This document shows, piece by piece, positions 18,180-45,768 of a stretch of DNA of 53,620 nucleotides. The position numbers and the translations under genes were made by a program. Below the pieces are notes generated by a model that had not been told where the DNA came from, ran no database searches, and was given only the letters and a program-made list of their open reading frames with translations. The stretch is from a virus: positions 1 through 53,620 of IMG/VR virus record IMGVR_UViG_3300045988_088394. One strand, written 5' to 3'. Numbering within the stretch: the first letter of the stretch is position 1; every line of letters begins with the position of its first letter.

Positions 18180-19394
18180 CTACTTGTTAAATAAGTCCAT
18201 AGCCGTTTTTTTGGCTTTATCAGCTATATCAATATAAGGCTTCATGCTCTTGTAATCGGAGTGTCCAGTCCACTTCATAACGACATTGGGTGCAATTCCA
18301 AGCATTAGCGCATTGCATATAAATGTACGCCTTCCGCTGTGCGTTCCGACCATCTGCCATTTTTCTTTCGTTTCCTCTATTTTCTTTCCACCTATATAAT
18401 ATATATCTGTCAGTTTCTCGTTGATGCCGCATTGGCGGCACACCTCCTTGATATATACGTTCATTTTTTGGTTGGAGATGACAGGGAGAGCCTTGTCTGT
18501 ATCGTTGTCCGCATAACGCTGTAAGATTGTGCGAGAGTAGTTGTTAAGCTCTATTGTAATCTTGTCATTAGTCTTTTGCGTGGTTATGTGTATCGCGTCA
18601 TCGTATATGTCTGTCTTTCTAAGTGCGGCTGCATCGGAATAACGCAATGAAGTAAAACAGCAAAAGCAAAATATATCACGAGTGCGCGAAAGGTAAGGGT
18701 ACTCAAATGTGTGATTGTATACCTTCATCAGTTCCTCCCATGTAAGAAATACCACATTGCGGTTGGCACGCTTTAGGTGTGTTTTCTGTGCAGTAAAGGA
18801 GATGTCAGTTAATAAGCCCTTGGCCACAAGCCAGCGGAAGAACCACTTGGACATTGACAGCTTCTTCTTGGTCGTTTCGTTTTGGTGGCCGAGGTCTGTT
18901 TGGAATACTGCAAACCTGTCAAGTGTTTCGGGATTGATTCTTTCTATGCTCATATCGTCATCGAACATCTTCCATTCTTGCAGTAGCTTCCTGTGCTTGT
19001 ATATTACGCTCTTGCCCCAATGGCACAATTTGCCTTGTTCGTTGATATAGTCCTCGTACAAATCAAAGAAGCCTTCATTTTGTGCAGTTTTCTTTTCTCT
19101 CTTAAACTCCTTGTCAAGCGCAGCCTTGAAGTCCTCTGTTGTAGGCGACTCCTTGAATGAGTTGGCAACGGATTGTATTGTCTCCTCATACCTCTGTACC
19201 TCCGCATTTATCTTAATTGCAGGTGTAAAGCTCTTTCCGTGAGTTGTGTTGCGCTTGCACCGCTGCATGGCCATATCCCATTTGCTCTTGTCAACATGGA
19301 ACCCGAGCGAATAAGAGAATTTACGCTTGTTGTAAGTGATGAACACGCGGAGAGAGCCGCGCGCATCAACTGCAAATGTGTATACGTATTTCAT
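18180..19394 (-). CDS. int: Tyrosine recombinase / phage integrase (Bacteroidales type)
   Basis: 404 aa. The C-terminal catalytic region carries ..HSGRRTFICNALMLGI..VMKWTGHSDYKSMKPYIDI (R, H-x-x-R, H, Y pattern). The N-terminal region looks like an arm-binding/SAM-like domain. Confidence 0.85.
   Translation of the reverse strand: MKYVYTFAVDARGSLRVFITYNKRKFSYSLGFHVDKSKWDMAMQRCKRNTTHGKSFTPAIKINAEVQRYEETIQSVANSFKESPTTEDFKAALDKEFKREKKTAQNEGFFDLYEDYINEQGKLCHWGKSVIYKHRKLLQEWKMFDDDMSIERINPETLDRFAVFQTDLGHQNETTKKKLSMSKWFFRWLVAKGLLTDISFTAQKTHLKRANRNVVFLTWEELMKVYNHTFEYPYLSRTRDIFCFCCFTSLRYSDAAALRKTDIYDDAIHITTQKTNDKITIELNNYSRTILQRYADNDTDKALPVISNQKMNVYIKEVCRQCGINEKLTDIYYIGGKKIEETKEKWQMVGTHSGRRTFICNALMLGIAPNVVMKWTGHSDYKSMKPYIDIADKAKKTAMDLFNK
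19357..19394 (-). repeat. 38-bp direct repeat, copy A (true 5' end of int)
   Basis: CCGCGCGCATCAACTGCAAATGTGTATACGTATTTCAT. 37 of 38 nt match 20299..20336. Confidence 0.9.
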
Positions 19395-35940: not shown

Positions 35941-36064
35941 ACAACAAACAAAAAAATGCCCCATAAGGTTTCAGAATAACAATCTGTCCCTATGGGGGCG
36001 AAATAAGTGTCCAGCACTTATTCCCATACCGCAAAATTACAAACAATTATAATACAAAGCAAAT

Positions 36065-37324
36065 ATGCAAGCAAAAACAATCAAACTTTCTGATTTGCAT
36101 CTCAATACTGGACAAATCAAAGACGTGCCAAAGAACCCTCGCTTCATCAAAGATGAGCGTTACGAAGCACTCAAAAAGAGCATTGAAGATGACCCCGAGA
36201 TGCTACAACTTCGTGAACTCGTAGCCTACGATAACAACGGAGAACTTGTCGTTATCCTTGGCAACATGCGTTATCGAGCCATGAAAGAACTCGGCTACAA
36301 GGACGCCCCTGTTAAGGTGTTACCCACCGAAACAGACGCAAAGAAACTCCGTGCCTACATTCAGAAGGACAACATCGCTTTCGGTCAAAACGATTGGGAC
36401 TTGCTCGGCAATGAGTGGGACGTGGAAGAGTTGCAGGATTTCGGGCTGGAATGCGATTTTCTTACAGATTTAGACATAGATAAAGGAAATGAAAATACTA
36501 TGGATAACGTGCAAGAAGACGATTTCGACCCAGACTCAGTTCAAGAAGATGAAATAGAAGTGAAACTTGGGGATATATTCCAACTTGGAAATCATAGGCT
36601 CATGTGTGGAGACAGCACTAAGGAAGAATTTGTAAATGCGCTATGTGATGAAAAACAAATGGATATGTTGCTGACGGACCCACCATATAATGTTGATTAT
36701 ACAGGTAAATCAAGTGAACTCAAGAATAAAAAGATAGCCAATGATGCCATGCCAGAGGACTCATTTCGTACATTCTTGTTAAGTGTGTTTAATTTAGCTG
36801 CATCGCATCTCAAAAAAGGTGGGGCTTTTTATATATGGCATGCCGATTCGGAAGGAGTCGCTTTTAGAAATTCGGTTGATGGAACGGGCAGCTTATTGCT
36901 TAAGCAAACGCTAATATGGAATAAAAATTCATTTGTGCTTGGAAGGCAAGACTATCAGTGGAAGCACGAGCCTTGTCTATATGGCTGGAAAGAAGGAGGT
37001 CCTCACTATTTTATTAACGACAGGAGTCTTTCAACAGTCATTGATATGAATAAGCCGCAGCGAGCTGACCTACACCCTACAATGAAACCAATTGAATTAT
37101 TCGCTTATTGTATTAACAACAGCAGCAAAGTTGGAGAGAATGTCCTTGACTTATTCGGAGGAAGTGGAACATCTATTATCGCATCCGAGCAACTTGGTCG
37201 TAAGTGCTACATGATGGAGTTCTCTCCACACTTTGTTAACGTTATAATTAAACGATGGGAAACGCTAACAGGACAAAAGGCAATAAAACTTTGCAATATA
37301 TTAGACAGTAGCAGTAAGGTGTAA
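36065..37324 (+). CDS. ParB-like nuclease domain fused to a DNA methyltransferase (N6-A/N4-C, beta class)
   Basis: N-terminal ParB motif ..VVILGNMRYRAMKELGY... Motif IV, LLTDPPYNV, precedes motif I, LDLFGGSGTSIIA. Confidence 0.85.
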   Translation: MQAKTIKLSDLHLNTGQIKDVPKNPRFIKDERYEALKKSIEDDPEMLQLRELVAYDNNGELVVILGNMRYRAMKELGYKDAPVKVLPTETDAKKLRAYIQKDNIAFGQNDWDLLGNEWDVEELQDFGLECDFLTDLDIDKGNENTMDNVQEDDFDPDSVQEDEIEVKLGDIFQLGNHRLMCGDSTKEEFVNALCDEKQMDMLLTDPPYNVDYTGKSSELKNKKIANDAMPEDSFRTFLLSVFNLAASHLKKGGAFYIWHADSEGVAFRNSVDGTGSLLLKQTLIWNKNSFVLGRQDYQWKHEPCLYGWKEGGPHYFINDRSLSTVIDMNKPQRADLHPTMKPIELFAYCINNSSKVGENVLDLFGGSGTSIIASEQLGRKCYMMEFSPHFVNVIIKRWETLTGQKAIKLCNILDSSSKV

Positions 37325-37848: not shown

Positions 37849-39051
37849 ATGTCTCATGATGTATTCTTTACAAAAAACTTTTTACGCATTCAAGCTGCAA
37901 AAGATGTCGGCTTTACAACGGTTTCTCTGCAAGGTTCTTCGCGAAGTTCAAAGAGTTATTCTATCGTGCAATGGCTATGTGTCTGTTGCCATAACATCGT
38001 AGGAACGACAGTGTCCATTGTGCGTGCTGGCATGCCATCAATTAAACGCACAATTTATCGTGATTTCAAAACGATAATGCAAGATTTTGGCTGGTGGAAT
38101 CCTAAAGCGATGAACAAAACCGACTTCATCTATGAGTTTCCCAATGGTTCATGGCTTGAATTCTTTTCAACAGATAATGAACAGAAAGTGCGTGGTTCTA
38201 AGCGCCAAATACTTTTCGTAAATGAAGCCAACGAATTAAATTATATAGAGTGGCAGCAGCTACAGATGCGTACAACGGAATTTTCCATCATAGACTATAA
38301 TCCATCCTTTCCTGACGACCACTGGATTTGTGATGTTAATCGGGAAACACGCACATATTGGTTTATTTCCACATACAAGGATAACCCATTCTTGGAACAA
38401 AAGGTTATTGATGAAATCGAAAGCCTTAAAGACAAGAATCCTTCATTGTGGCGCATCTATGGACTTGGGCTGCAAGCTATGGTAGAAGGGCTTATTTTCG
38501 AGAATGTAGAAGCAGTAGACGAAATACCACGTTGGCACAAGAAACATCACTACCGAGGCATGGACTTCGGTTATACGAACGACCCTACGGCCATTGTAGA
38601 CGTGTATATCAACGATAATTCGCTGTGGATTGATGAAGTGTGCTACCGCACAGAAATGTTGGCTGCAGACATAGCGAAAGCGCACAAGGAAGCCAATCGC
38701 GAATGTGGACAGAATGTTGAAATAATATCAGAGAGTGCTGACCCTCGACTGATTGACGAAATTTCGAATGCAGGGCTTGACATTCACCCCGTACACAAGT
38801 TCCAAGGGTCAATCATGGCTGGAATACAGAAGATGCAAGAGCTAAAGATACGCGTAACAAAGCGAAGCACCAATGTGCTGAAAGAATTTCGCAACTACAC
38901 CTACCGACAGAACAAAGATGGCAAGTGGCTGAATGAGCCTATTGACGCCTACAACCACGCGATAGACGCAATACGTTATGTGGTGCTTGATAAACTGCTC
39001 GGGCAGAATAGTAACGGCATAGAAGCCGATGATTTTATAGATATGCTGTAA
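37849..39051 (+). CDS. terL: Terminase large subunit (PBSX/TIGR01547-like)
   Basis: Walker A-like LQGSSRSSKSYS, ..ILFVNEANEL.., and a C-terminal nuclease region with ..ISESADPRLIDE.. and ..DAYNHAIDAIRY.. Confidence 0.85.
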   Translation: MSHDVFFTKNFLRIQAAKDVGFTTVSLQGSSRSSKSYSIVQWLCVCCHNIVGTTVSIVRAGMPSIKRTIYRDFKTIMQDFGWWNPKAMNKTDFIYEFPNGSWLEFFSTDNEQKVRGSKRQILFVNEANELNYIEWQQLQMRTTEFSIIDYNPSFPDDHWICDVNRETRTYWFISTYKDNPFLEQKVIDEIESLKDKNPSLWRIYGLGLQAMVEGLIFENVEAVDEIPRWHKKHHYRGMDFGYTNDPTAIVDVYINDNSLWIDEVCYRTEMLAADIAKAHKEANRECGQNVEIISESADPRLIDEISNAGLDIHPVHKFQGSIMAGIQKMQELKIRVTKRSTNVLKEFRNYTYRQNKDGKWLNEPIDAYNHAIDAIRYVVLDKLLGQNSNGIEADDFIDML

Positions 39052-39085: not shown

Positions 39086-40534
39086 ATGAAGCAAATAAGA
39101 GAGATAATGGCATTGGGCGACCCGATGCAGATTTACACGCTGTTGACAGCACGCAAACGAGGTTTCAAAAAGCCTCTTGATGTAACAGAAGCGGAATATA
39201 ACCCAATGCAGCACGCAGTCTATGACAAGACAAAGCGCAAGAAAAAGGAACTTAAGGTAAAGAGCGACAAGCGAGACAATGATGGGAACTGGCTATACAA
39301 GACAAAGTATGTAGACCGCTGCCGTATTGCTGTTCCAGCGCAGCGACTTATCTGTGAGCGTGATGTTGGCTTCTTGCTTGCCGAACCAGTCAAATACAAC
39401 ATTAAGGGTGTTGCAGACAGCCAGCAACAAGAGTTGTATGACAGCGCAATGGATATCCTGCAATACAACAAGATAGACTACTTCGACAAGCGGCTTGCAC
39501 GCGAGTTGTTTCGTTGTTGCGAATGCGCGGAGCTATGGTACATTGTTAAGGGCGAAGATGGCGAGGAGGACGAAATGCGTGTAATGCTGCTCTCTCCACT
39601 GCATGGGGATATTCTGTACCCCCACTTCGATGACTACAACCGCATGGACGGATTTGCGCGCAAGTACAATGTAAAGGACGAACTCGGCAATACGACTGTC
39701 CATTTCGATGTGTACACGTCAACACTCGTGTACCGATACATGAACAATGGAGCAAACCTTGAACTCATTGACGCAAAACCGCATGGCTTTGGGAAAATCC
39801 CAGTCGTGTATTATCGGCAGGAGGAAACCGAATGGGAATGCGTGCAACCAATCATTGAGCGATTGGAAGAACTTCTCTCTAATTGGGGTGACGTGAATGA
39901 CTACTTTGGTGCGCCAACATACTTCTTCAAAGGCAAGATGAAAGGCTTTGCCGAGAAAGGTGAGGTTGGCCGTGTATACCAAGGCGAGGGCGAAAATGCT
40001 GACATGAAGGTCGTGTCTTGGAACTCTGCCCCAGAGAGTATGCGACAGGAGGTAGCCAACCTTACAAACATCATATTCTCATATTCGCAGACGCCTGACA
40101 TATCATTCGAGAATATGAAAACGTTAGGTAACAACACGAGCGGAGCAGCAATACGACTCATGTTTACCGACCCACACCTAAAGGCCGAAACGAAAGAGGA
40201 ACTGTTTGGCGAGATGTTTACGCGAAGATTTAATGTCGTAAAGAGTGGCTATGCAACAAGCATGAAAGCCACACCAAAGCGTATTGCAGACCAGTTGCAA
40301 GTAACGCCAGTGTTCACGCCCTACATACCGAAAAACGAGATGGAGATGCTGCAACTCATCAATCTGTCAACGCAGAGCAAGCAAACGATGTCGCAAGAAG
40401 ATGGTGTAAGGCTTAATCCACTTGTGAGCAATCCCGAGGAAACAATCAAACAGTTGCAAGAGGAGAGCGCACAATCAATGAAGATGGCCTTGTTCGGCAC
40501 AACAAAAGAGGAGGACGAAACTGGAGAGGAATAA
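39086..40534 (+). CDS. Portal protein
   Basis: 482 aa, directly after terL and before the MuF-like gene. The C-terminus is acidic. Confidence 0.8.
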   Translation: MKQIREIMALGDPMQIYTLLTARKRGFKKPLDVTEAEYNPMQHAVYDKTKRKKKELKVKSDKRDNDGNWLYKTKYVDRCRIAVPAQRLICERDVGFLLAEPVKYNIKGVADSQQQELYDSAMDILQYNKIDYFDKRLARELFRCCECAELWYIVKGEDGEEDEMRVMLLSPLHGDILYPHFDDYNRMDGFARKYNVKDELGNTTVHFDVYTSTLVYRYMNNGANLELIDAKPHGFGKIPVVYYRQEETEWECVQPIIERLEELLSNWGDVNDYFGAPTYFFKGKMKGFAEKGEVGRVYQGEGENADMKVVSWNSAPESMRQEVANLTNIIFSYSQTPDISFENMKTLGNNTSGAAIRLMFTDPHLKAETKEELFGEMFTRRFNVVKSGYATSMKATPKRIADQLQVTPVFTPYIPKNEMEMLQLINLSTQSKQTMSQEDGVRLNPLVSNPEETIKQLQEESAQSMKMALFGTTKEEDETGEE

Positions 40535-40549
40535 TAACTGGAACACGGA

Positions 40550-42181
40550 ATGACCGCTGAACAGAGATTGACAAAATTGCTTCTGCAAGCATCAGGCGAC
40601 TTGCAGAAGCTATACGACAAACTTATTAAAGAGCTGACAAAAGCAACATCAAATTCTGTTCACGCTGTCAGCCCTGATGAATTGTATACAATAGCAAAGG
40701 CTTGCACCCCGACTGAAAAAGAACGGGTGCAGGCTTTGCTTGATGCTTACAGTAGCACTCTTGGCTCACTCATAAAGCAGGGCATAACGCGTGCCGTTCT
40801 GCTCTCAGCCAACATTCAGCAAAAGGCCCTGTCAGCATACACGCGTATGCAGGGCAAGGAGGTTGACGATTGGCGCGAAAGTACGGCAAAGGCATTTATC
40901 AACAGCAGAATGAAACGCGATGGTGGACCCAACCTCTCTGACAGGGTGTGGAACTACACGCAACAAACAAAGGCAGAGTTTGAACTTGCCATGTCGCAAG
41001 CCCTTGAAAAGGGCATCAAGCAAGGTATATCAGCAGAGAGCCTTGGCCGTCAGATACGGCAGTATCTCAATAACCCCGATATGATGTACAGACGTTATCA
41101 CCTCAAAAAAGCTATGGCAGACGGAACGAAACGCGATGTCGTGGAATGGCGCAGACGTGTGATAGACGAGCAAGGCAAGGTGCGCTTTGTAAAAGAAGAT
41201 TTGGCCCATGTCGGCACTGGCGTATATCGTTCAGCACGTCAGAATGCCTTGCGCCTGACTATCACAGAAACGAATATGGCCTACAACTATGCAAATTGTG
41301 AAAGATGGAGTAGTGAGCCATACGTGTTGGGCATTCGTATTAGAACGTCAGCAAATCACCCAGAGAAGGATATTTGCGATGAACTTGCAGGCGACTATCC
41401 CAAAGATTTCATGTGGCGAGGCTGGCACCCACGTTGTCGCTGCTCCATGTCATCAATCTTGATTGACCGCAATAGCGAGGAGTGGAAACATCTGCGCTCT
41501 CTGCCCGAGAAAGAGTATAGAGCTTACAAGTCCCCCAATCTTGTGCCGAACGTGCCTGAGAAGTTCTCTAAATGGTGCGAGCGCAATGCTGACAAGTTAA
41601 ACTTGGCGCGAGAGAATGGAAAGCTGCCTTACTTCGTGAAGGATAATATGAAGGCTGTTGGAAAGTTCGTAGGCTGGAATGAGGACTCCATTCTGGCAAA
41701 AGAGATAACTGAAGTATGCAAGATGGCGCGCGCATCTGGCAAAGAAGTTCAAGGTACAGCGGAATCTATTGCACAAAAGTACGGAGCTAAATGTACACCG
41801 ATAAACTTTAAGAGCGAGGAATCTATAAGGAGAAAGGTCCTCTTGGAAAGACAAGAAGTTCCTATGTTTTCGCCAAAGAATTTGAAAGATACAGTACGAA
41901 CAACAATAGTTGCTGACAATAAGGATATTGATTTTATAATCAGCGACTTGGTTAAACATAAATCTTTTGTGCGACTAAAGAAACAGAAAACATCATTAGG
42001 CTATGTTGGTAATATAGTTAATCTAATAACAAATAATGGTCTTATAGCAGAGGTTCAAGTAATCACGCCTTATATGATTTATGCTAAAGAATCTCCCAAA
42101 ATTGCAAAGCAACTTTTGGGAGAAAGTATGTGGAATAAGATAATGCAAAAAAACAAAATTAGAAGGTGGACTCGGACATAA
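40550..42181 (+). CDS. Head morphogenesis protein (MuF / SPP1 gp7 family) with a C-terminal RelA/SpoT-like domain; the frame as given is truncated at an A7 run
   Basis: MuF-type motifs ..LTITETNMAYN.. and ..GWHPRCRCS... The C-terminal region has KSEESIRRKV, DTVRTTIV, GYVGNIVNL and AEVQVIT. The +1 frame continues to 42278. Confidence 0.8.
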   Translation: MTAEQRLTKLLLQASGDLQKLYDKLIKELTKATSNSVHAVSPDELYTIAKACTPTEKERVQALLDAYSSTLGSLIKQGITRAVLLSANIQQKALSAYTRMQGKEVDDWRESTAKAFINSRMKRDGGPNLSDRVWNYTQQTKAEFELAMSQALEKGIKQGISAESLGRQIRQYLNNPDMMYRRYHLKKAMADGTKRDVVEWRRRVIDEQGKVRFVKEDLAHVGTGVYRSARQNALRLTITETNMAYNYANCERWSSEPYVLGIRIRTSANHPEKDICDELAGDYPKDFMWRGWHPRCRCSMSSILIDRNSEEWKHLRSLPEKEYRAYKSPNLVPNVPEKFSKWCERNADKLNLARENGKLPYFVKDNMKAVGKFVGWNEDSILAKEITEVCKMARASGKEVQGTAESIAQKYGAKCTPINFKSEESIRRKVLLERQEVPMFSPKNLKDTVRTTIVADNKDIDFIISDLVKHKSFVRLKKQKTSLGYVGNIVNLITNNGLIAEVQVITPYMIYAKESPKIAKQLLGESMWNKIMQKNKIRRWTRT

Positions 42182-42267
42182 ATTCTATGAACAATGGAGA
42201 TTGTTAAATCCGAAAAGTAAAGAAGCTATCGAAATAGCAAAGAAAAGTGTTGAATACTATAGACACT

Positions 42268-42519
42268 TTAAGAATTAGCTAATTTCCGATATTTACCAGT
42301 ACGCGGATTCCAATCCCATGTTATACCGAAATTGTCATACTCTTCTTTTGTGATTGGTTCAAGAAAATTCTCCATACTGAAACTTGGAATACCCCATGCT
42401 TCTCTTTCATCTTTACCTGCTTTACGTTCTCTAAGGTACTCAATATGTTTTATATAACGTTGGCCATTGTCATCTTCACGTACAACGGCATCAGCTTCAT
42501 AATTTGAGAAATATTTCAT
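42268..42519 (-). CDS. Hypothetical protein (83 aa), convergent with the MuF-toxin gene
   Basis: I chose ATG 42519 (MKYFSNYEADAVVRED..). It has its own TAACTTTG box upstream at 42639-42646. Confidence 0.5.
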   Translation of the reverse strand: MKYFSNYEADAVVREDDNGQRYIKHIEYLRERKAGKDEREAWGIPSFSMENFLEPITKEEYDNFGITWDWNPRTGKYRKLANS

Positions 42520-42638
42520 ACAAAAAAATAAATAAAAGATACCCATGGTCAGCCACTCGCATCCCACTGTCTTGTTTCATACACCATTCCGTCAAAGGAA
42601 AAGCCTTGTCCGCTGTTAGGTATCTTGTCATGTTAATG

Positions 42639-42646
42639 CAAAGTTA
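42639..42646 (-). promoter_or_regulatory. TAnnTTTG -7 box (TAACTTTG on the minus strand) upstream of 42268..42519
   Basis: Reverse complement of CAAAGTTA. Confidence 0.3.
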
Positions 42647-42671
42647 TAAATTAAATTTATATGTAGAAGTT

Positions 42672-42893
42672 TCACGCATCAATTTTCCAAAGATATTGAA
42701 TATCCCCACCGCCTAAAGTAAGCGTCACGTCAGGCTCGGCCATCAAGTCACTTTTTTTGAATGAGAAATAATACAGCGACCTTGGCTTAAGCTCGCCACT
42801 GATTATCTTCAATTCGCATGATGACTTCATATAGGCTGCACCAGTGACCAAATCCCATCGGAGCAGGTCTTTCAGAAATTCTTTTGCTTTCAT
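42672..42893 (-). CDS. Hypothetical protein
   Basis: 73-aa ORF in the minus-strand island. Confidence 0.45.
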   Translation of the reverse strand: MKAKEFLKDLLRWDLVTGAAYMKSSCELKIISGELKPRSLYYFSFKKSDLMAEPDVTLTLGGGDIQYLWKIDA

Positions 42894-42898
42894 GTTGT

Positions 42899-43300
42899 TT
42901 AATCTATAAAGTCGTTGAATGTTGTTACCTCTGTTCCACCATCATAGAAAGGCTTCTTGTCGCAAATATAGCCCTTCCAAGAGCCATATTCGTATATACG
43001 AAACATGTGGTATCCAGCATTACGAAGAGCCTTAAAAGCTGCTTTCATCTCCTCGCCATTAAATCGGATATTAACGTCACTGACAGATGCTTCGTAGCCA
43101 CCAAACCCGTAGGCTTTACCGCTTCGTTTGTAGACTCTGACGTATAGAGTTTTGCCTCTGTACGCGTTTTGTCTCTCTGGGTGAAATATGCGCCAGACGC
43201 AAGTGCTGAGAAACGCATCGCAAATGTATTGTACAACCTCTTGACGTACTTCTGTTGGCTGTACATAATCGTTCTTTGGTATGTTTACTGTTATTTCCAT
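42899..43300 (-). CDS. Hypothetical protein
   Basis: 133-aa ORF in the minus-strand island. Confidence 0.55.
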   Translation of the reverse strand: MEITVNIPKNDYVQPTEVRQEVVQYICDAFLSTCVWRIFHPERQNAYRGKTLYVRVYKRSGKAYGFGGYEASVSDVNIRFNGEEMKAAFKALRNAGYHMFRIYEYGSWKGYICDKKPFYDGGTEVTTFNDFID

Positions 43301-43315
43301 TGTCGTTGTGTTGTA

Positions 43316-43795
43316 TTAAATTCGTGTGATTGTTTTTGCTGTCTCCTCTCCCCATAGTTCAACTATTATGTCGTAGGCTTCCTTGTCACCGTCCCAAGCG
43401 TACATGCACTCGCAGTTATTGTATTCAAAGAAATACACCTCTTGTGGGTCACAATTAGCTTTTATTTCCTCGTCCCTTTTTGCGAAGTAATCAAAAAAGG
43501 TCTTATATCTATCGACATCGGGGTGCGTCTTGTATCTGGCGTTGTAATAGAATGAAACAGTCTTAGCATTAAGCATTACTACGCTGCCCTCGGTGCAAGA
43601 CCAGTCAATAAAGTATTCAAGCGTGCCTTTAGTCGTTTGAATGTGCCTTATCGCTTGTGGGTTCTTGGCCTTGGTCCTTGCATAGCTTTTGGCGAAACGT
43701 TCTTTAAGGCCGCAATTCTTAGCGTGTATGTAAGCATCTTGGTAGTTCATGATGTATTCGTTATCCTCTTTCAATTTTGCTTCTTCTTCGTTCAT
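43316..43795 (-). CDS. Hypothetical protein
   Basis: 159-aa ORF in the minus-strand island. Confidence 0.55.
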   Translation of the reverse strand: MNEEEAKLKEDNEYIMNYQDAYIHAKNCGLKERFAKSYARTKAKNPQAIRHIQTTKGTLEYFIDWSCTEGSVVMLNAKTVSFYYNARYKTHPDVDRYKTFFDYFAKRDEEIKANCDPQEVYFFEYNNCECMYAWDGDKEAYDIIVELWGEETAKTITRI

Positions 43796-43851
43796 AGCTG
43801 TTTTTTGTTATAAGCGAGTGGGCATTGCACCCACTCGCGAGGTTGATATGT

Positions 43852-44736
43852 TTAGATTGAGTATTGCTCTTCAAGAAACTTGACCATTGCTCTATTCTGT
43901 GGCAGCATGTCAGGTATATTCATGCTGTCGGCCTTATAAAGCTCTGTTGCAGCGTTATACACGTCCCATACAGTTGTTTTATTTGTGTTGTGGTAGTTTA
44001 TAAGTAGCAACTCTGTAAAGCGCGAAATTTGCGCCTGATTGAGCGGATAAACGACTGGCTCTTTGATAGCTTTGTTCGATGTGTCGCACTTTACTCGGAT
44101 AGCTGTAAGCATGCCAATTAGCGTAAATACTTGCTCGGCCGTGAGTTCTATGCTTTTCATACGTTCCATTCGCTCTCTGTCGCTTACAATGATATGGCGT
44201 GCATCAACGAGCCACGACTTGATAACATCAAGTACGTCTTGCACGGTAATCTTATCACCTCGCCCAGCACCTTTTTCGGCATACGTTGATATGTAATTGC
44301 TCGCATTGAGCATACATTGGTTATGGCATATCTTGACCATATTGCCAAATCCAGCCTGAATGCCTTTTTGGTGGAATGCAATAGCGATATTCGTAGTGTT
44401 CTCACTGTCATCAAAATCGCTTATTCTTATGTTTGCGAAAACGCGCCTCAAAATGTGTGCTTCTACTGCCTTATCTCCGTACTGAGCTTCTACCTGCGGA
44501 AGTAGCACAACACCTGGCTGAGCGCGGTCTTTGTTCTGTGCTGCAAACAAGTCGTACACTTCAACATTGAAGTGTTGCTCGTTTCACATGTTAATTACTT
44601 CGTTGAGCAACTGGAAGTGATAGATGCCTTTCAAAGGGTTATTGTATACATCGTTTTCCTTGTGCGTGCGTTCGAGCTGTTCCAGTGTAATTGTCTGTAC
44701 TTTTGCTTTTTCGAAGTCAAAAAACTTATTATCCAT
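43852..44736 (-). pseudogene. DUF932/DUF3871-like gene interrupted by one in-frame TGA (44584-44586)
   Basis: ATG 44736 opens 50 codons (MDNKFFDFEKAKVQTITLEQLERTHKENDVYNNPLKGIYHFQLLNEVINM). A TGA follows, then the same frame continues into ORF 43852..44559. Confidence 0.5.
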
Positions 44737-45297
44737 TGTGTTATATATTTTAGAGTTGTTGTTTTCAAATTAAAAATGCGCTTAACGTTATCGCCCAACG
44801 AATTGTGACAGCAAAGTGCGAGGTGTACGTTTCGCTCCCAACTGGGATAAGTCTGACTTATGCACTCGTGCAACTATTCAGAGGTATCTCCTTTTCTAAG
44901 CATCTTAACGTTTAGCTTCAACGTTTGGCTTATTTATTGTTCACGCCAAACAAGAACGTTCTATGGCTATCCAAACACAGCTCGCCACAGATGAAGCCGA
45001 GTTTTTTTGTCAGGTGTTTCTTTCACCCCACGGTATGCCTGACCGCCCGCTGTTGTATACGGTTTTTCTCTACAATGGTGCTTGGATTGCACCTACGGCT
45101 TTTTAGTTGTATTGCTCAACCCTCGTAACGATAAGGTACGGTATACGTTTTCTCGGTTTGTAACGTGTTATCTCACGGCTGGTTAACACCACAGCTTTCG
45201 GATTTACTCTTATCTGAGGTTTACTTTCTGCTTTTTTGAAGGGAAAGCGCAAAGAAATTCTAAGAATCGCCCGTACCCTATTCAAACGTTTGTCTTG

Positions 45298-45346
45298 TAG
45301 GTGTGAGGGGAATCGAACCCCTCACGCTGCCTTTCCAGCTCACCTT
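45298..45346 (-). other. tRNA 3'-half-like sequence (variable-arm-like hairpin, perfect T-arm, acceptor 3' strand) with no matching 5' half
   Basis: Minus strand: AAGGTGA GCTG-gaaagg-CAGC GTG AGGGG-TTCGATT-CCCCT CACACCT A. No AGGTGTG partner lies within 100 nt. Confidence 0.35.
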
Positions 45347-45506
45347 AATACTCTTTTATTACAAGGTGCTTTCTCCACGCGTTTAAGAAGGTTATTTTGA
45401 AAACTTCTTCGCCAATGTAAGCGCAGGCCCCTGAAATGGGGTTGAATAAATACCCATCGTCGTAAACGATGCTCGCTTTGTTGTATTTGAATGTGCAATA
45501 TTTCAT
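45345..45506 (-). CDS. Small hypothetical protein (53 aa)
   Basis: The ATG is 1 nt after the TAA of the upstream gene. Hand-translated: MKYCTFKYNKASIVYDDGYLFNPISGACAYIGEEVFKITFLNAWRKHLVIKEY. Confidence 0.4.
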   Translation of the reverse strand: MKYCTFKYNKASIVYDDGYLFNPISGACAYIGEEVFKITFLNAWRKHLVIKEY

Positions 45507-45507
45507 T

Positions 45508-45768
45508 TTAGTCCAAGTTAAGATATTTAGATACTTTGTTTACGAGGCTCTCTATTGAAGAGTGGAGCGAAGAGTTGACAGCGTAATCAACATTCTCCTT
45601 GCAATAAGAAACGAGGATTTTCCTGTCATGCCAGCGAGTTATTATTACATAGAAGTCGCCATTTCTGACCTCTCCTGTAAACTGATTGTACAAGCGTTCT
45701 CCGCAATTGTCGAAGGTTATTGCTTCGTATAACTCTTTTTTGTTCACTGGGGTAATTGTCTGTATCAT
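45508..45768 (-). CDS. Hypothetical protein
   Basis: 86 aa. First gene after the promoter-leader cassette at 45785-45822. Confidence 0.55.
   Translation of the reverse strand: MIQTITPVNKKELYEAITFDNCGERLYNQFTGEVRNGDFYVIITRWHDRKILVSYCKENVDYAVNSSLHSSIESLVNKVSKYLNLD

Follow-up and report, generated by a model that had tools for sequence, protein, structure and literature searches.

Why does a phage head gene carry a toxin domain whose last segment lies in another reading frame, and is the break a defect or a device? The question is raised by the gene at positions 40550..42181 of a 53,620-nucleotide stretch of viral DNA (IMG/VR virus record IMGVR_UViG_3300045988_088394, positions 1 to 53,620), which is called the window below. 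The initial annotation read this gene as a fusion of a MuF head protein with a toxin domain of RelA/SpoT fold, interrupted at a run of seven adenines (A7), a description upheld by profile and structure searches, and it left three explanations for the break: a homopolymer error, an inactivating mutation or programmed slippage. The best explanation, with a probability of about 0.75, is a genuine, lineage-specific insertion of one A that inactivates a toxin gene of the Apk2 family and leaves the MuF part intact, with a convergent gene for an 83-residue protein as the likely immunity gene. The break involves the following features.

40550..42181, plus strand: the MuF-Apk2 gene as found in this clone; frame 0 encodes 543 residues, the last nine of them aberrant (NKIRRWTRT), and ends at TAA 42179-81
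41687..42278, plus strand: predicted Tas1/Apk-type (p)ppApp synthetase toxin domain of RelA/SpoT fold, residues ~380-575 of the joined product (~195 residues), split by the frameshift
42147..42153, plus strand: the A7 homopolymer, site of the one-A insertion (A6 in intact relatives)
42153..42278, plus strand: continuation in the +1 frame, 41 codons and a TAG, encoding TKLEGGLGHKFYEQWRLLNPKSKEAIEIAKKSVEYYRHFKN; this is the conserved C-terminal end of the toxin domain, left untranslated in frame 0

Upon re-translation the two-frame layout was recovered as originally described, including the position of the A7 run, the TAA end and the TAG-terminated +1 frame. The frame-0 product of 543 residues ends with ...WNKIMQKNKIRRWTRT, and its stop lies 10 codons past the A7 run. 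The +1 frame has a TAA at 42141-43 and is then open, reading CKKTKLEGGLGHKFYEQWRLLNPKSKEAIEIAKKSVEYYRHFKN, through ..KKTKLEGGLGHKFYEQWRLLNPKSKEAIEIAKKSVEYYRHFKN to the TAG at 42276-78. The -1 frame runs into a TAG immediately. Removal of one A in silico gives a joined product of 575 residues. The four motifs that had been quoted as marks of a RelA/SpoT fold (KSEESIRRKV, DTVRTTIV, GYVGNIVNL and AEVQVIT) were all found upstream of the break and in the order given. The extension in the +1 frame is not a chance open frame, because homologues without an interruption, at identities down to about 50%, read through it and the toxin Tas1 aligns across it.

A Pfam scan of single sequences, either the joined protein or its C-terminal domain, gave no RelA_SpoT (PF04607) match at E<=1, and the fold was therefore shown by profile and structure searches. 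The same Pfam model is found below threshold in three of 14 homologues (best E=0.0016), where the gathering threshold is not reached, and PADLOC and NCBIfam gave nothing for the toxin domain and the downstream proteins beyond a sub-threshold gp7 match. When the C-terminal 199 residues were used as a query, 22 homologous clusters were retrieved. A profile of the 14 homologues matched one family in the PDB, that of Tas1 (6OX6_A), with E=2.2e-43. The alignment extends from the first helix to ...KSRAYY and thus includes the post-frameshift segment GGxGHKYYE...YY. An exhaustive profile search found 313 clusters at E<1e-30, many of them proteins of 520-600 residues with the domain at the C-terminus.

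The structure searches agree with the profiles. The AlphaFold2 (AF2) model of an intact relative, P0002 (96% identical), has a predicted local distance difference test score (pLDDT) of 86, and Foldseek placed 6ox6_A, Tas1, at the top of the list (E=6e-15, TMt 0.84, root-mean-square deviation 2.5 Å, 33% identity). Tas1 is followed by SAS1 (5DED/5DEC), RelP, Rel, RelA and SpoT, with E values of 1e-5 to 1e-3 and a probability of 1.00. The similarity to RelA/SpoT proposed for the region from residue ~400 to the end is thus present, although it is seen with the homologue profile and Foldseek and not with the RelA_SpoT model of Pfam, by which the joined product was also to have been recognized. Judged from the profile and the model, the C-terminal domain is a Tas1/Apk-type enzyme of the RelA/SpoT homologue (RSH) fold. 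By analogy with characterised homologues, for which the activity is known, it would synthesize (p)ppApp.

The intact homologues continue through the frameshift site as ...QKTKLEGGLGHKFYE..., and the columns G235, G236, G238, H239, Y242 and E243 are invariant in the 14 homologues, down to ~47% identity. The +1 frame does therefore supply the H...Y(E/K) end that had been expected of it, the invariant columns being aligned in Tas1 as well.

There is little doubt that the seventh A exists. In ENA, Logan and JGI the exact 543-residue product is encoded by 30 contigs (42 assembly blocks), and these are independent short-read assemblies with MEGAHIT-style k127/k119 contig names. Over 13.6 kb, contig L003 matches the window at 100% identity, and L003-L005 all reproduce the 543-residue product. 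Homopolymer insertions and deletions are a classic type of error and the close relatives carry A6, so that one might take A7 for a sequencing or assembly error in an uninterrupted 575-residue fusion gene. However, this is extremely improbable in view of the identical product in so many independent assemblies, and a linked but independent nonsense single-nucleotide polymorphism, described below, is a further mark of the A7 clone. A7 is a real allele, and it is not a conserved one.

The A6 allele is present in six IMG/VR contigs, in two JGI contigs and in the genome of Prevotellamassilia timonensis, and the close A6 relatives are complete at 575 residues. A single uninterrupted open reading frame (ORF) ending in ..YY.HF.. 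was found in 80 out of 80 IMG/VR relatives. In more distant homologues the A-run is missing, and the site reads R-E-T-G-L. Between 40750 and 43000 the A6 phage L099 and the window are two substitutions apart, in addition to the single-base insertion or deletion at the A-run; the flanks are mosaic, and the overall identity is 97.3%. Both alleles occur in one project, PRJNA217052. On these comparisons the change from A6 to A7 is recent in this lineage.

A7 is also found in L001/L002 (P0018), the sibling of which, P0185, has A6. The L001 locus is a deletion remnant in which window positions 36001-36463 are joined to 41867-42638, with an in-frame stop. The deletion in L001/L002 takes out terS, terL, the portal gene and the MuF region and retains the convergent 83-residue gene. 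The product is a fusion in which a ParB-like N-terminus, from the phage methylase gene, is followed by the 3' half of the toxin gene. The proteins having a ParB-like N-terminus and half a toxin domain (P0005, P0006 and P0018) were considered as a possible new architecture, which was rejected on account of this remnant. The A6 tract is a slippage-prone mutational hot spot.

Of two homologues at ~50% identity, P0022 loses the frame a few codons past the equivalent site and reads ..GMKGGWGINIMKNGEY where P0017 has ..GMKGGLGHKYYEEW; C-terminal truncations of the toxin domain therefore recur at different positions. P0021 (316 residues, ENA) combines the N-terminus of an RNA polymerase alpha subunit with the final ~75 residues of the toxin domain, these at 97% identity, and is probably a chimeric metagenome assembly.

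A real A7 allele might still be a device. The tract could be a contingency site, at which slipped-strand events toggle the toxin ON and OFF, or a recoding site, at which slippage of RNA polymerase, or of the ribosome by +1, yields a minority of full-length toxin next to the truncated MuF protein; in both cases the dose of a dangerous enzyme would stay low. The coexistence of A6 and A7 on near-identical backgrounds in one cohort would fit such a site, as would the second, independent A6/A7 pair in another lineage (L001/L002 against P0185). However, this other A7 case is in a pseudogenised remnant having no selectable function. The abundance of the A7 allele also speaks for it. So does the downstream +1 frame, which is unbroken and the same as in functional relatives, but this carries little information when the A6 and A7 copies are only two substitutions apart. 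Indeed the post-frameshift segment is almost identical in the two, which makes a dN/dS calculation impossible.

The mechanics of recoding were considered next to these comparisons. Recoding needs a +1 shift or the loss of one base from the transcript, since the -1 frame offers no open path. A Lys-tRNA in the P site could re-pair from AAA to AAA at +1, giving exactly MQKTKLEGG. However, the A-site codon AAC is not known to be a hungry codon, and an A7 tract is shorter than those usually needed for efficient transcriptional slippage. The RNA from just upstream of the run to ~100 nucleotides past it folds no better than shuffled sequences (z=-1.1), and hence offers no stimulatory structure. None of the 80 IMG/VR relatives is frameshifted, and the distant homologues have no run.

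The same clone has a second lesion, in a gene on the other strand:

43852..44736, minus strand: accessory gene, encoding 294 residues in relatives (L008, L099)

In the window, codon 51 of this gene is changed from TGC to TGA (44584-44586), which splits it into parts of 50 and 235 residues, and the identical contig L003 has the same split. For the 294-residue protein, Pfam, PHROGs, NCBIfam and PADLOC gave no family match. This ordinary nonsense mutation, 2.4 kb away and outside any homopolymer, counts against a programmed A7. Thus A7 is probably not a programmed site, and a contingency or recoding function is unlikely. Among the three explanations left by the initial annotation, homopolymer error and programmed slippage give way, the latter on account of the unconserved site, the near-identical A6 siblings, the lack of structure and the second lesion; inactivating mutation is favoured.

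The inactivating insertion would spare the part of the protein that is needed for head assembly. This part and the genes preceding it are as follows.

37849..39051: TerL, start of the head module
39086..40534, plus strand: SPP1 gp6-type portal gene, immediately upstream of the MuF gene (Pfam SPP1_portal, 1.1e-54; phrog_64)
40550..41680, plus strand: MuF/SPP1 gp7-like minor head region, residues ~1-377

The PHROG families of head-morphogenesis and minor head proteins match the N-terminal part (phrog_7625, 3.5e-60; phrog_1657, 2.5e-22; phrog_115, 4e-16). The match to phrog_7625 covers residues 15-564, and therefore passes through the frameshift point, and phrog_16625, the MuF part of the toxin Bxa, matches residues 115-374 only (9e-64). 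The matches to Phage_Mu_F of Pfam (E=0.34) and to TIGR01641 gp7 (E=0.0016) both fall below the curated cut-offs. The order of the head module is TerL, portal, MuF-toxin gene. From the PHROG matches and the position after the portal gene, the N-terminal part is taken to be a divergent MuF/gp7 module, in keeping with its first description as an SPP1 gp7-type minor head protein.

The events can be pictured in the following way. The ancestral functional form would have been a single 575-residue ORF with an A6 tract. Insertion of a single base, turning A6 into A7, would have shifted the frame and removed the last 41 residues, among them the family-invariant motif GGxGHxxYE and two terminal helices. 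By analogy with gp7, a few copies of the MuF part would be packaged in each virion, in association with the portal, and the toxin would presumably be delivered with the virion. Characterised members of the toxin-domain family convert ATP/ADP to (p)ppApp and poison cells by depletion, as is assumed for the intact form. The clone in the window would most likely make a MuF protein whose toxin domain is dead or crippled, without effect on head morphogenesis. Normal head assembly is expected because the MuF part is untouched.

It is also conceivable that the 543-residue protein is still an active toxin, or one of modified activity, the lost C-terminus being dispensable or regulatory. The four central motifs (KSEESIRRKV, DTVRTTIV, GYVGN and AEVQV) do lie upstream of the break. 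However, the lost segment has six invariant residues (GG.GH..YE) and helices conserved in all homologues and in Tas1, it is modelled with a pLDDT of ~87-94 up to the last few residues, and the crystallized Tas1 chain is aligned from end to end. Retention of activity is therefore very unlikely. Because the invariant GGxGHxxYE segment and two confidently modelled terminal helices are lost, the truncated toxin domain is probably inactive, a conclusion drawn from conservation.

What protects the host of an intact phage from this toxin? Two immunity proteins are known for Apk2 toxins, namely the toxin-binding protein BcTis1 and the HD hydrolase Aph1 (PMC10083569), and Tis1-like genes were downstream in all the clusters examined in the published survey of Apk2 (PMC10083569). 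The window has another gene at this place.

42268..42519, minus strand: gene for an 83-residue protein (MKYFSNYEADAVVRED...), candidate cognate immunity protein, overlapping the full-length toxin frame by 11 nucleotides

Searches of the window with tblastn found neither Aph1-like nor canonical Tis1-like genes (the best match to the Aph1-like query from L041 had E=0.67), and the downstream ORFs of 99, 133, 159 and 235 residues had no Pfam match. The initial annotation had remarked that no immunity gene follows on the same strand and that the next gene converges on the toxin frame and overlaps it by 11 nucleotides. The convergence and the overlap are as described; immunity need not be absent, since the convergent gene is likely to provide it, to judge by its conserved position.

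When the 80 IMG/VR relatives were sorted by the arrangement of their immunity genes, two layouts were seen. In the Bacteroides-type layout the toxin gene is followed, on the same strand, by a 75-residue BcTis1-like gene and a gene for an HD hydrolase of 145-153 residues (HPIRV...LLHDTIEDT), and then by a 235-residue acidic protein in the position of the scaffold gene. In the convergent layout a small gene on the opposite strand overlaps the 3' end of the toxin gene by 4-11 nucleotides. The convergent genes of L016, L018, L019, L021 and L024 (IMG/VR) are clearly BcTis1-like, encode 76-87 residues and overlap the toxin stop by 4 nucleotides, and inverted immunity genes therefore recur in the Apk2 family. 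The 83-residue family (MKYF.NYEADAV...) is convergent in the window, L006-L015, L017 and L022. Its gene keeps the convergent, overlapping position beside toxins of only 47-50% identity (L013-15, L017 and L022) and in the independent P0225 loci, which follow an SPP1 portal gene, and it was retained together with the toxin in a chromosomal remnant.

This remnant is a cassette that consists of the equivalent of window positions 40556-40751 and 40954-42798, in L094 (Prevotellamassilia timonensis NZ_LT629845.1), L095-L097 and L092. It contains a degraded 5' end of the MuF region (stops and a ~200-nucleotide deletion), a toxin domain that is intact, with A6 (398 residues as called), and the 83-residue gene. 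With 97% identity to the phage, it is situated between the homoserine O-succinyltransferase gene and prfC, ~100 nucleotides from an array of seven tRNA genes (Gly, Leu, Leu, Gly, Arg x3). The cassette was seen in at least 20 contigs. Its origin may lie in a prophage of which a remnant was kept for immunity, or in the domestication of a toxin-immunity pair.

A homologue of the 83-residue protein, 74% identical, is encoded without a toxin gene in chromosomes of Rikenellaceae type (L102-L106, P0191, e.g. GCA_900198705.1 FZPS01000059.1). These orphan copies stand beside MNT/HepT, HipA, Vsr and restriction-modification genes, and 92 assembly blocks are listed for them. The locus looks like an orphan immunity gene in a defence/immunity island. 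Toxin-less copies among toxin-antitoxin and restriction genes are the typical pattern of immunity genes.

The AF2 model of the 83-residue protein has a pLDDT of 94. Alignment of its family with the BcTis1-like one by hhalign gave a probability of 78% (E=1.8e-5) over 50 columns, with a common ..ISKxEYDxF end. A search of PDB sequences with the 99-residue ORF form and with the family profile did not find Tis1, and Foldseek of the model against the PDB gave no significant match, Tis1 lying outside the top 50. The protein may be a very divergent relative of Tis1. From synteny, the convergent gene is most likely the cognate immunity gene.

Several of these observations weigh against an inactivated toxin gene with a convergent immunity gene. 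A7 is the form most often assembled, in 30 contigs against ~19 for the 575-residue forms, and because of this frequency it is not obviously counter-selected. Ribosomal or transcriptional slippage by +1 may take place at A7 at a low level. Two independent A6/A7 events may also be what a contingency (phase-variable) tract would produce. The loss of activity upon truncation is argued from conservation. Neither Foldseek nor a hidden Markov model search of the PDB linked the 83-residue protein significantly to Tis1, and the hhalign probability of its relation to the BcTis1-like family is 78% only. It can thus be imagined that A6/A7 is a heritable ON/OFF switch or a low-efficiency recoding site by which a temperate phage of Prevotellaceae tunes or silences a virion-borne (p)ppApp synthetase toxin, paired with a new convergent immunity family that is also found as orphan genes in Bacteroidales chromosomes. 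As a whole this proposal is quite unlikely, and a genuine inactivating insertion remains the best explanation.

The window as a whole is the genome of a temperate, siphovirus-like phage, with tail genes, KilA-N, RecT and a ParB-N/N6_N4 methylase, and with an integrase:

18180..19394, minus strand: tyrosine integrase

No tRNA genes were found in the window, and blastn of the locus against GenBank phages gave a single match of 62 nucleotides. The region 42268..45768 is occupied by small minus-strand genes without family matches and is followed by a DUF559/Vsr-like endonuclease gene and the capsid genes. Beyond the 83-residue gene, three more small minus-strand genes (73, 133 and 159 residues) lie at 42672-43795, between head genes. 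Pfam, PHROGs, NCBIfam and PADLOC gave no match for their products. The genes are kept in the close relatives L006-L012, and relatives of the 159-residue protein at 33% identity are present in L016 and L018. The three genes make up a moron-like insertion that separates the MuF gene from the capsid genes. The chromosome of Prevotellamassilia timonensis and related contigs contain a 1.8-kb segment with 97% identity to the window, and this points to a host among the Prevotellaceae.

Since the truncated allele is the one most commonly assembled, the toxin domain is suggested to be dispensable for propagation of the phage. The intact (A6) and truncated (A7) phages, two substitutions apart across the toxin-immunity segment, are natural isogenic material with which the role of the toxin domain in fitness can be studied. 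If the 83-residue protein is an immunity protein, the immunity repertoire of Apk2 is wider than Tis1 and Aph1, and the orphan copies in gut Bacteroidales are explained. Annotators should label the gene a frameshifted Apk2 gene rather than a hypothetical protein.

MuF polymorphic toxins were defined by Jamet et al. (2017), who listed RelA-like domains among their C-terminal domains (PMC5576092). Ahmad et al. (2023) described 89 MuF-fused homologues of Tas1 and named them Apk2; one of these, BACCAC_01148 of a Bacteroides caccae prophage, makes (p)ppApp and is toxic (PMC10083569). The work on Apk2 was extended to the Pasteurellaceae by Paulet et al. (2025; PMC12226406). MuF-fused toxins may be injected together with the phage DNA, serve in interbacterial killing or act on the host (PMC10083569).

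The gene in the window shares with the Apk2 gene of B. caccae a MuF N-terminus after the portal gene, a Tas1-like C-terminus of RSH fold, its origin in a Bacteroidales gut phage and a small adjacent candidate immunity gene. Its relatives L020-L085 often have the canonical series of toxin, 75-residue Tis1-like protein and HD hydrolase. In contrast, this copy is frameshifted by A7 and lacks its last 41 residues, no HD hydrolase of Aph1 type was found in the window by tblastn, and the small gene, convergent and overlapping the toxin gene at its 3' end, is of a family that is remotely, if at all, related to Tis1. Of the features by which Apk2 is recognized, the MuF domain next to the portal gene and the Tas1-like domain are thus present, whereas a toxin domain complete in a single ORF and an Aph1 gene, which is variable in the family, are missing.

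The toxin domain belongs to the same family as Tas1/Apk1 of Pseudomonas aeruginosa PA14 (6OX6), an effector of the type VI secretion system (T6SS) with the immunity protein Tis1, and the likeness includes the conserved GGxGHxYYE..YY. The two differ in delivery, by PAAR/T6SS for Tas1 and by MuF and the phage head here, and Tis1 itself is not detectably matched by the 83-residue protein. The MuF module is closely related to that of Bxa of Bacteroides stercoris prophages (phrog_16625; PMC11699363). Both are from Bacteroidales gut prophages and have an exchangeable C-terminal toxin, which is an ADP-ribosyltransferase in Bxa and would be a (p)ppApp synthetase of RSH fold here. Finally, the toxSAS proteins FaRel, PhRel and CapRel (PMC7229694, PMC11782079) are likewise small synthetase toxins of RelA/SpoT fold, and FaRel also makes (pp)pApp. 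However, they are stand-alone, bicistronic toxin-antitoxin systems, unlike the fusion to a virion protein seen here, the sequence of which is much closer to Tas1 than to the SAS type. The gene is a frameshifted member of the already characterised Apk2 family rather than a new system.

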